From the NCBI GenBank assembly GCA_965226375.1, contig CBDDCX010000006.1, positions 384,001-448,000 on the forward strand: a DNA stretch of 64,000 nt, read 5' to 3'. This document shows, one piece after another, positions 41,169-43,506 of this stretch (position 1 is its first letter; the number at the start of each line of letters is the position of its first letter). Source of the DNA: Longimicrobiales bacterium (GTDB lineage: Bacteria; Gemmatimonadota; Gemmatimonadetes; Longimicrobiales; Gaopeijiaceae). The notes below the pieces were generated by a model, which searched no databases, was not told the DNA's origin, and saw only the letters and a list, made by a program, of their open reading frames with translations. Both the position numbers and the translations under genes were made by a program.

Positions 41169-41585
41169 ATGCCCATCTTGAAATCCAGAAGCCTCTTCAT
41201 CAGCCATTCCTGGACCTATGGCGACGCCTACAAAAGGCTCGTGGCCTTGCTCGATGCGGCGCCTAGTTTCCTCTACAAGAACTACTCCGTCCCAAAGGAC
41301 GATCCGGTCCACAACGCGCCGAACGCCGACGCCCTGTACAAAGCCATCAAGCAGAAGATGGTCTTCTGCGACGTGGTGCTAATAATGGCCGGGAAGTATG
41401 CAACCTACAGCAAGTGGATTCAGAGGGAGATTCAGATCGCCAATCAGGATTACAGCAAACCGATAGTCGGTATCCGTCCTTGGGCGAATGAGCAGGTATC
41501 ATCGGTCGTCTCAAATGCGGCTGACAAACTTGTCGCCTGGAACACCAGTTCGATCGTTTCAGCAATCCGGGAGTTGGATCCGTGA
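41169..41585 (+). CDS. ThsB-like TIR-domain protein 1 (DUF1863/MTH538 type)
   Basis: LFISHSW, CDVVLIMAG, SKWIQREI with putative catalytic Glu, KPIVGI, LVAWN; GGAGG RBS. Confidence 0.9.
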   Translation: MPILKSRSLFISHSWTYGDAYKRLVALLDAAPSFLYKNYSVPKDDPVHNAPNADALYKAIKQKMVFCDVVLIMAGKYATYSKWIQREIQIANQDYSKPIVGIRPWANEQVSSVVSNAADKLVAWNTSSIVSAIRELDP

Positions 41586-42133
41586 CGGAGGCGCTGCATT
41601 CGCCCGAGCAGAAGCTCTCCGGAGCACTCAAGGGCATACCCCCGGACCAATACGGGCCTGCCTATGCGGATCATGTTCTCGAAATCTATAAAAGCTATCT
41701 CGAGATGGCAGACCGCATTAGCAGCCGTCGGGAGAAAGCGAACTCATTCTTCCTCGCCGTAAACGCTGCGTTGATCGCGCTTCTAGCCAATGGCCGGCTC
41801 GTGGGGAGCGACGTCACGCCTCGCACCCTTGAGCTGCTTGTCCCAATATCCGCCGGCATCCTCTGCTATCTCTGGTATCGCATCATCCGGTCGTACCGAG
41901 ATCTCAATTCGGCAAAGTTCAAGGTGATTCACGCAATCGAACTCGAACTGCCGTTACGTCCGTACGATGCGGAATGGGAAAGCGTCGGGCGCGGCAAGAA
42001 CTCGAAGCTGTACCTGCCCTTCACCCATGTCGAAGCTGTCGTGCCATGGTTGTTCATGTCCCTCTACGCAATCCTGGTCGCGTCTCGTATTCCTTGGGCA
42101 GCTATTTGGACAGCCGTACGAGGCATTGGCTAG
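41582..42133 (+). CDS. RipA/Rip1-family oligomeric membrane protein
   Basis: YLEMADRISSRRE.ANSFF, W..IIRSYRDLNSAKFKVIH.IE..LP..PY..EW, FT.VE..VP.LF; three hydrophobic segments; GTGA overlap with the TIR gene. Confidence 0.8.
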   Translation: MTEALHSPEQKLSGALKGIPPDQYGPAYADHVLEIYKSYLEMADRISSRREKANSFFLAVNAALIALLANGRLVGSDVTPRTLELLVPISAGILCYLWYRIIRSYRDLNSAKFKVIHAIELELPLRPYDAEWESVGRGKNSKLYLPFTHVEAVVPWLFMSLYAILVASRIPWAAIWTAVRGIG

Positions 42134-42264
42134 CAACTGCACAAGTTCATTGGGCCCATGGATTGCTGTCAGTTGAGAGAGGTGGAGGAAATACACCTGG
42201 CCAGATGCAGTCGAAATAGCTTTGGCCAACCACACCAGTGTTAGGGGGGGGTGACCACGTGGCG

Positions 42265-42645
42265 ATGAAAGCCTTTATCAGTTTCGACTACGATCATGAC
42301 ATGGACCTGAAGACGTTGTTGGTGGGGCAGGCGAAGAACTCGGATACCCCATTCGAAATCGCCGATTACTCGGTCAAGGAGACATTAACGGGCGACTGGA
42401 GGAAGAAGGTCAAAGAGAAGCTCAAGCTCGTTGGTGTCGTCATCGTCATTTGCGGCGAACATACGGACTCAGCCAGCGGCGTCAGCGCAGAACTCGAAAT
42501 TACGCAGGAGCTGGGGAAGGCCTATTTTCTTCTCTCTGGCCGCAGTGGGAAGACCTGCGTCAAACCCAAAGCTGCGAAGACATCTGACAAGATCTACAAA
42601 TGGACGTGGGACAACCTAAAGGCGCTCATCGGCGGCAGCCGGTGA
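42265..42645 (+). CDS. ThsB-like TIR-domain protein 2
   Basis: AFISFDYDHD, DYSVKE, VVIVICGEHT..ASGVSAELEI, YKWTWDNL. Confidence 0.9.
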   Translation: MKAFISFDYDHDMDLKTLLVGQAKNSDTPFEIADYSVKETLTGDWRKKVKEKLKLVGVVIVICGEHTDSASGVSAELEITQELGKAYFLLSGRSGKTCVKPKAAKTSDKIYKWTWDNLKALIGGSR

Positions 42646-42663
42646 CGCGCTGCGGGTAGGTCT

Positions 42664-43506
42664 ATGAGACGTGCTCTTTGCGTCGGCATCGACAACTATA
42701 CGGCTGGCCCCCTTCGCGGCTGCGTCAGCGACGCCGAACGATTGTGCTCTGCTCTAAGGTGTAACCAGGATGGCTCGCCAAACTTCGAGCCACGATTGCT
42801 AGTCGCTCCTGACCCAGGACCAGATGACGTCGTTACTCGCCGCGTTCTCCGCAAGCAGCTAGGACGGCTGTTCAAAGATCCGGCAGAGCTAGCGCTCCTT
42901 CACTATTCTGGCCACGGCACGGTCAACAATCTGGACGGGTACCTGGTCACGCAGGATGCTGCTAAGTTCGACGAAGGTATCGCGATGGGGGAAGTGCTCA
43001 CGCTCGCCAATGATTCGCCGGCGGATGAAGTGGTCGTCTTCGTCGATTGCTGCTACTCGGGGAGGTTCGGCAATCCGCCTGCAATCGGCAATGCAAGAGT
43101 CTTGCTGCGAGAAGGCGTCTCGATCCTGACTGCGAGCAGGGGTGATCAGCCCTCGGTCGAGACTGGGGGAGGAGGTGTGTTTACGTCGCTTGTGCTAGAT
43201 GCCCTTGAAGGAGGAGCGGCGGATATTATTGGCTCGGTGACGCTCCCAGCCATTTACGCCTACGTGGCTGCCGCCTTAGGAGCATGGGATCAACGTCCCC
43301 TATTCAAATCCCACACGTCTCGGCTACTACCGCTCAGGCGATGCACGCCGCCGATAGAGCAGAGTCTCCTGAGAGACTTGCCTCTGCTTTTTCCGCTACC
43401 TGCAGAGGATCTTCCTCTTGATCCTTCATTTGAGCCGCAATCCGCGAGACCTGATGAAGGGAATGTGGCCACCTTCGGAAAATTGCAGGCCTTGAGTAGA
43501 GGGTGA
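42664..43506 (+). CDS. Caspase-family (C14) protease, type IV Thoeris-like; probably C-terminally truncated by IS30
   Basis: RALCVGID.Y..LRGCVSDA, YSGHG (His), DCCYSG (Cys), GGVFTSLV.DALEGGAAD, AALGAWDQRP.FK. Confidence 0.9.
   Translation: MRRALCVGIDNYTAGPLRGCVSDAERLCSALRCNQDGSPNFEPRLLVAPDPGPDDVVTRRVLRKQLGRLFKDPAELALLHYSGHGTVNNLDGYLVTQDAAKFDEGIAMGEVLTLANDSPADEVVVFVDCCYSGRFGNPPAIGNARVLLREGVSILTASRGDQPSVETGGGGVFTSLVLDALEGGAADIIGSVTLPAIYAYVAAALGAWDQRPLFKSHTSRLLPLRRCTPPIEQSLLRDLPLLFPLPAEDLPLDPSFEPQSARPDEGNVATFGKLQALSRG

Follow-up and report, generated by a model that had tools for sequence, protein, structure and literature searches.

An intact TIR-8xMP module next to a decayed type IV Thoeris module in a Longimicrobiales genome

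Here we have analysed a cluster of four candidate defence genes in a 64,000-nt stretch of DNA from a Longimicrobiales bacterium (GenBank assembly GCA_965226375.1, contig CBDDCX010000006.1, positions 384,001 to 448,000 of the forward strand; this whole stretch is the window, and coordinates count from its first nucleotide). The cluster holds a TIR gene coupled to a gene for a small membrane protein of family PF24838, here called 8xMP, followed by a second TIR gene and a caspase-like protease gene, the pair that makes up type IV Thoeris. What we find is no new four-gene system but two modules, of which the TIR-8xMP one is intact and the type IV Thoeris one has decayed. The four-gene order itself is of little importance; the lasting result is a comparative case in which 8xMP and the type IV caspase read as interchangeable outputs of the same TIRs. 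The four genes, followed by the two remnants that flank them, are:

41169..41585, + strand: TIR1, a ThsB-type TIR of 138 residues, intact, catalytic Glu87 (ThsB_TIR, 55.9 bits)
41582..42133, + strand: membrane protein of the 8xMP/'RipA family', 183 residues, intact (PF24838, 129.6 bits)
42265..42645, + strand: TIR2, a ThsB-type TIR of 126 residues, intact, catalytic Glu76 (ThsB_TIR, 31 bits)
42664..43506, + strand: type IV Thoeris caspase-like protease (ThsE), 3'-truncated, His84 and Cys129 kept (Peptidase_C14, PF00656, 50.6 bits)
39910..40740, + strand: insertion sequence (IS) remnant in the upstream flank, IS3-type transposase (HTH_21 and rve, frame broken; Pfam)
43501..43965, + strand: IS remnant, HTH_38 transposase N-terminus, interrupting the caspase gene (Pfam; single copy in the assembly), its left edge inferred from the end point of caspase homology

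All four genes are co-oriented open reading frames (ORFs), as the initial annotation of this DNA had read them, and each has a Pfam match. The spacing given in that annotation is exact: TIR1 and the membrane gene overlap by GTGA (41582-41585) and 18 nt separate TIR2 from the caspase gene, with 131 nt between the membrane gene and TIR2. The catalytic residues that it saw as kept are invariant in our alignments, E87 of TIR1 and E76 of TIR2 each within its own clade and H84 and C129 of the caspase in 37 aligned sequences. A TIR gene 18 nt upstream of a Peptidase_C14 gene, with the Glu and the His/Cys dyad retained, bears out its call of a type IV Thoeris pair. PADLOC models match both TIRs and the caspase, and neither PADLOC nor NCBIfam has a model for the membrane protein. 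The description of the locus as IS-bounded holds insofar as remnants lie on both sides, but they are two unrelated remnants and not one element: the IS3-type remnant has related copies on contigs C2, C3, C6 and C8, and the HTH_38 remnant is one that we take to be IS30-like. The cassette is probably a recent arrival, because its genes have a GC content of 53-58% against 63-65% for the contigs and the membrane gene is present in 0 of 40 related genomes. A promoter and terminator scan of the locus gave no more than chance level.

The caspase gene keeps its catalytic residues but has lost its 3' end, a truncation overlooked in the initial annotation. Its product is 280 residues long, against 318-328 in all 119 listed homologs (319 in 107 of them), and homology ends after residue 279-280, where the HTH_38 remnant starts, so that about 39 C-terminal residues are gone. 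A search for the missing tail in the assembly (a 90% complete genome) returned a best match of only E 0.009, and no other C14 gene was found there. All nine members of the caspase's 90% cluster share this end point, and four of them also lack the N-terminus. Most members of this lineage keep a whole TIR1 and a whole membrane protein; one TIR1 is cut short, one membrane protein has been shortened and another has gained a foreign tail. In the text available, Rousset et al. propose an N7-cADPR pocket (N7-cADPR being a cyclic ADP-ribose isomer) in the caspase C-terminal domain, and the truncation removes part of this presumed signal-binding domain. We regard the gene as a decayed type IV Thoeris member whose product is probably dead. 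Elsewhere, a small gene with a weak RyR-domain match (E 0.002 in L164) lies directly after plasmid type IV caspases (L164:4987-5271 and L166:3502-3783).

Neighbourhoods were surveyed for two of the genes: for the membrane gene around the 80 best of its 347 genome matches (73 with upstream room), and for the caspase around the 80 best of at least 256 metagenome matches (50 with 1.5 kb of upstream DNA). In 54 of those 73 loci the gene immediately before 8xMP encodes a TIR. A caspase is near 8xMP in one of 80 loci, the other 79 lacking one in the available DNA (70 of them with at least 1.5 kb downstream), and 8xMP is near the caspase in three of 80, two of these near-duplicates, and upstream of it in 0 of 50. 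The exact four-gene order was not found outside this lineage, and a conserved four-gene arrangement is thus not supported. Both pairs do occur together elsewhere in other orders (L076, L084, L146/L147, L163 and L164): L076 has TIR-8xMP, two genes and TIR-caspase, each pair using the TIR clade that the other pair uses at the studied locus; L084 reads TIR-caspase-TIR-8xMP and ends at a contig edge; L146/L147 read TIR-TIR-caspase-8xMP, and L163 caspase-TIR-8xMP-TIR. Furthermore, L055 carries a TIR1-like gene, a TIR2-like gene and 8xMP with no caspase, a natural three-gene operon. This lack of a conserved order and co-occurrence argues against an obligate cascade and against a fixed four-gene system. 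Chance alone does not account for the adjacency either, the explanation that the initial annotation had set against its own, since the two pairs meet in other genomes in different orders. What is conserved is two pairs, TIR-caspase (type IV Thoeris) and TIR-8xMP.

TIR1 and TIR2 have no significant BLAST match to each other and fall in different clades, and each clade serves both effectors. A tree of 151 TIRs (129 columns, quick method, seven near-duplicate loci excluded) holds 60 8xMP-linked and 73 caspase-linked rows, a few labels being assigned by adjacency and not by strict upstream position. Four supported sets of 23, 22, 11 and 77 rows (Shimodaira-Hasegawa-like approximate likelihood ratio test, SH-aLRT, 95-99) each mix 8xMP-linked and caspase-linked TIRs, and the effector changes at least 23 times over those 60 and 73 rows; SLATT-linked TIRs form the sister group of the TIR1 clade. 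A caspase-linked TIR is found at 60% identity or more for 38 of the 60 8xMP-linked TIRs and at 70% or more for 18, with cross-effector examples at 78-84% overall, among them 84% (L020/L144), 80% (L074/L165) and 79% (L030/L093). Since this sample was chosen by effector, we also ran scans blind to neighbours that started from TIR1 and TIR2 alignments, and in the two together 32 of 33 close TIR relatives lie beside 8xMP or caspase. Among the 44 loci of the TIR1 scan, all 19 at 50% identity or more (several are near-copies, leaving about 15 distinct lineages) adjoin 8xMP (9) or caspase (10); the 25 below 50% adjoin caspase (12, from two lineages), SLATT (10), 8xMP (1), TPR-S (1) or none of these (1). 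The TIR2 scan gave 20 loci including two seeds: at 55% or more, 13 of 14 non-seed loci adjoin 8xMP (5) or caspase (8, one with the caspase 1.6 kb away) and one could not be assigned, and of four weaker loci three adjoin caspase and one SLATT. Likewise on plasmids, 14 of 15 TIR2 matches sit beside caspase (10) or 8xMP (4) by coordinate matching. On sequence grounds, 8xMP and the caspase read as interchangeable outputs of the same TIR clades. The two signalling branches of the initial annotation survive as two TIR-effector pairs; its strict assignment of TIR1 to a pore and TIR2 to a protease does not, since the clades occur with either effector. In L194 (1247-2875), a 543-residue ORF ends in a domain of the TIR2 clade and has no other Pfam match.

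The membrane protein belongs to PF24838 by a wide score (129.6 bits against a Pfam cut-off of 30). RipA, as it had been called, is indeed a database name of this family; the likeness to Rip1 that was attached to it could not be confirmed. Its AlphaFold2 model (predicted local distance difference test, pLDDT, 81.6) has three long helices at 28-69, 81-120 and 148-167, and the sequence has two hydrophobic peaks above 1.6. A four-copy model scores 0.76, the best control 0.00; in the calibration set, 20 of 30 solved pairs and one of 23 single chains attain the mark for this score, and the four-copy job with its custom alignment differs from that set. The four-copy runs agree in at least 88% of contacts at a pLDDT of at least 79, and each subunit uses two different faces, as in a ring or filament; the modelling thus supports self-association for four copies. 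R50, N54, W98, K112, E131, W132, E151, P155 and F158 are invariant in 48 close and distant members, and R50 and K112 may line a putative nucleotide pocket. No solved relative was found in PDB sequence searches or in Foldseek at E 0.001; the best match by VIA (Z 11.4, root-mean-square deviation 3.5, 104 aligned residues) is a generic helical bundle, below what is trusted for bundles, and was set aside, and the ESM Atlas returned only 8xMP clusters, with none at 0.9 or above once those were skipped. A literature search found no relevant paper on 8xMP, PF24838 or RipA. In viral data, 8xMP has one match in 50,697 phage records (that record is also listed as a plasmid) and four in viral contigs, single-protein viral scans giving nothing or one locus. 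The name Bacillus is absent among the few named 8xMP matches and 36 plasmid records, a sample that says little; the tested Thoeris types V and IX come from Bacillus, according to the text available.

Beyond the TIR-coupled loci, 8xMP genes keep varied company. Most of the 26 TIR-less 8xMP loci were scanned: several lie near TIR_2, DUF4062 or CAP12 TIR genes and others near unrelated genes. In L046, L053, L061, L073 and L079, 8xMP is directly 3' of an OmpA-domain gene (weak TPR), and in both loci where this was checked a TIR_2 gene precedes the OmpA-domain gene; this TIR-OmpA-8xMP cluster recurs in Rhodoferax/Albidiferax. In L047 (605-2035), 8xMP is fused to a periplasmic binding domain of the NMT1 type and the next gene encodes a CAP12-type TIR, and in L045, L048 and L063 DUF4062 genes come after 8xMP in place of a ThsB-type TIR. 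A second PF24838 subfamily (L249, L250, L253 and L254), with a different first-helix motif and no TIR neighbours, may be the branch behind the name 'RipA'. On haloarchaeal plasmids (H15, H19-H28 and H30-H33), 8xMP genes lie near TIR1-like genes.

A lead to the signal comes from L210, whose TIR and caspase match, letter for letter by eye, EcTIR and EcCaspase as given in Supplementary Data 1 of PMC13243611, where EcTIR is described as having been used to make N7-cADPR. TIR1, which falls in the clade of EcTIR, is identical to the L210 TIR at 73 of 133 positions (55%), and other 8xMP-linked TIRs reach 64% identity to this EcTIR-identical protein; the studied caspase is 38% identical to the L210 caspase over 279 residues. 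Because of that 55% identity, it is TIR1, the partner of the membrane gene, that stands nearest at this locus to a proven N7-cADPR producer. TIR2 stands at 27% over 79 residues to the EcTIR-identical protein and at 30% to a PsTIR-like protein, and no tested member was found in its clade. EcTIR and PsTIR, from different clades, are both reported to activate PsCaspase, which argues that one signal spans TIR clades. Published work presents the type IV caspase as an Arg-specific executioner, promiscuous in its cleavage, that kills alone, and effectors with a common signal are known to share one Thoeris operon (ThsH and ThsI). Our search of the literature, part of it available as partial text, found no N7-cADPR membrane effector.

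We propose that horizontal transfer brought in the locus as a cassette in which two Thoeris-type modules draw on one TIR sensor pool. TIR1 and TIR2 would each sense a phage cue and, as their family and their retained Glu suggest and as is known for EcTIR, convert NAD+ to a cyclic ADP-ribose isomer; this is most likely N7-cADPR, as judged from the same TIR clades pairing with the type IV caspase. The signal would bind between 8xMP subunits, with R50, N54, K112, E131, W132 and E151 as candidate contacts, and an 8xMP ring, its self-association being modelled, would then breach the membrane and stop the infected cell. In intact relatives the caspase would answer the same signal as a redundant killer working in parallel with the pore, not as its activator; the studied locus would have two sensors and one effector (TIR1 and TIR2 to 8xMP), with the gene set of L055. 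The parts of this proposal differ in strength. That two Thoeris-type modules lie here in parallel is very probable. Whether TIR likeness implies a shared N7-cADPR signal for both effectors is evenly balanced, and we place about half our confidence in the best explanation as a whole, two modules with one TIR sensor pool and 8xMP gated by a TIR signal. The fullest form, in which TIR-linked 8xMP would be an N7-cADPR-gated pore, interchangeable with the caspase across four TIR clades in bacteria and having relatives on haloarchaeal plasmids, at a locus that still defends without its caspase, is tentative and falls somewhat short of even.

Several observations weigh against this proposal. Yirmiya et al. 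report a TIR cluster whose neighbours include 302 of type I, 160 of type IV and 122 'DUF2270' (type V), and because a single cluster spans types with different signals, TIR likeness does not fix the product. None of 15 verified new Thoeris systems is reported to have given a caspase-activating lysate (10.64898/2025.12.03.692087); should TIR-8xMP be among those 15, the step through N7-cADPR would be wrong. Clustering is also seen between Thoeris types whose signals differ, multi-effector islands being reported, and a Pycsar plus type IV operon is described without cross-activation (PMC13069673). In our own data, the two effectors co-occur rarely (the one and three of 80 loci above), and 19 of 73 8xMP loci have no TIR directly upstream. 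A TIR lies beside one of 10 non-seed PF24838 matches above cut-off (171 genomes, profile-based), so that PF24838 at large works without TIRs. SLATT-linked TIRs appear at 46-48% identity to TIR1 (L239 and L246) and dominate at 41% or less, the tree is short (its 129 columns) and sampled by effector with a change count that has no shuffle control, and the hydrophobicity of 8xMP is modest, its peaks reaching 1.7-1.8.

One alternative is that two independent Thoeris types with different signals have merely clustered, TIR1-8xMP being a catalogued type, possibly V or IX, beside a broken type IV. Type V consists of ThsB and ThsF/DUF2270 and signals by 3'cADPR (10.64898/2025.12.03.692087); ThsF, with three membrane helices, a modelled ring and TIRs in the type IV cluster, fits 8xMP, the cluster annotation of that paper used pfam_v32, which may lack PF24838, its main text gives no description of ThsJ (type IX), and multi-type Thoeris islands are reported. 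Yet PF10028, the DUF2270 profile, matches 0 of 55 8xMP members, the one DUF2270 gene that we found has no TIR and no profile match to 8xMP (a weak test), and effector swaps between TIRs 78-84% identical would go unexplained. We consider this explanation a serious one that we nevertheless doubt. A gasdermin-like cascade, in which the activated caspase cleaves 8xMP and releases the pore, had been raised by the initial annotation; caspase and 8xMP are adjacent here and in five other clusters, and gasdermin-cleaving bacterial caspases are known from published work. However, 79 of 80 8xMP loci lack a caspase and 77 of 80 caspase loci lack 8xMP in the available DNA, the caspase is truncated in all nine cluster members with TIR1 and 8xMP mostly intact, and the type IV caspase is said to kill alone by promiscuous cleavage, so that a cascade is very improbable. 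It is also unlikely, if less extremely so, that 8xMP is a direct, Rip1-like sensor-pore acting on a phage protein ring, with the TIR independent or an NAD-depleting effector: the family names share a stem and many PF24838 genes have no TIR, but in this subfamily the link to short TIRs of the signalling type is tight (54 of 73), and Rip1 stands alone in prophages according to PMC13434031, a setting that the single phage record and four viral contigs with 8xMP do not recall.

Around the locus, a short AlpA-like regulator ORF is visible by eye at 39000-39700, where Pfam gives no match, and the DNA upstream of this ORF has further copies on contigs C6 and C7, which hints that an integrated element has its edge here. 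More transposase-like ORFs, several of them fragmentary, were seen by eye at 36851-37996 and 47025-48800.

The type IV caspase is the one bacterial N7-cADPR receptor found in the literature as available, its pocket being a hypothesis. If the proposed gating by N7-cADPR is true, 8xMP would be a second effector class and the first non-protease receptor for this signal, the TIR-linked branch of PF24838 would gain a function, and structural work would gain a compact target. The claim is cheap to test: EcTIR lysate, a caspase peptide reporter and TadIV-1, described as an N7-cADPR-specific sponge, are all published. Should the signal be another, TIR pairs about 80% identical with different effectors would form a set for mapping the residues that set the product.

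Among known systems, type IV Thoeris (10.1101/2024.10.24.620036; PMC13243611) is matched here, as far as its published description goes, by a short TIR2 whose gene stands 18 nt before that of a C14 protease, with the catalytic Glu (E76) and the His/Cys dyad (H84, C129) retained. The studied locus differs in that the caspase lacks about 39 C-terminal residues, and in that TIR1, the TIR nearest EcTIR, is coupled to the membrane gene whereas the caspase is paired with TIR2 of another clade. Type V Thoeris is alike in joining a TIR to a small membrane protein that is helical and, in models, homo-oligomeric; unlike it, the studied effector scores against PF24838 and not PF10028, and the TIRs group with type IV TIRs. 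No 8xMP member (0 of 55) matches PF10028 at E up to 5, a comparison made with the family profile, and the sole true DUF2270 gene, in one of 171 genomes, lacks both a neighbouring TIR and a profile match to 8xMP, the latter comparison being weak with a single sequence. ThsF and ThsJ were found in the literature solely in the available text of 10.64898/2025.12.03.692087; the TIR-8xMP pair may already be among the 29 Thoeris configurations of that 2025 preprint, and 8xMP could be ThsF (type V), ThsJ (type IX) or an unverified class among the 29. Type VII Thoeris, described as ThsB and SLATT with canonical cADPR, also combines a TIR with a membrane effector, and one 8xMP relative is named 'SLATT-5 domain' at NCBI; however, 8xMP has no profile match to DUF4231/SLATT alignments (probability 0.3), and SLATT_1, found in two of 55 8xMP members at E 0.11 at best, was rejected as its identity.

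Rip1 shares with 8xMP the character of an oligomeric anti-phage membrane protein and a similar family name. As described in PMC13434031, it is a lone gene between prophage terminase genes, triggered by phage protein rings, whereas the studied membrane gene is TIR-coupled and IS-flanked with no terminase context; Rip1 is absent among the 8xMP matches in PDB sequence and fold searches, in which no direct comparison with the Rip1 sequence was included. An obligate linkage of the caspase/gasdermin type was rejected on the counts of one of 80 8xMP loci and three of 80 caspase loci. Liu-DS6, the Pycsar plus type IV operon of PMC13069673, also joins a type IV module to a second module with a membrane effector; there the second module is cyclase-based, conserved (107 operons) and not cross-activated, whereas the studied locus carries a second TIR in an order that is not conserved.

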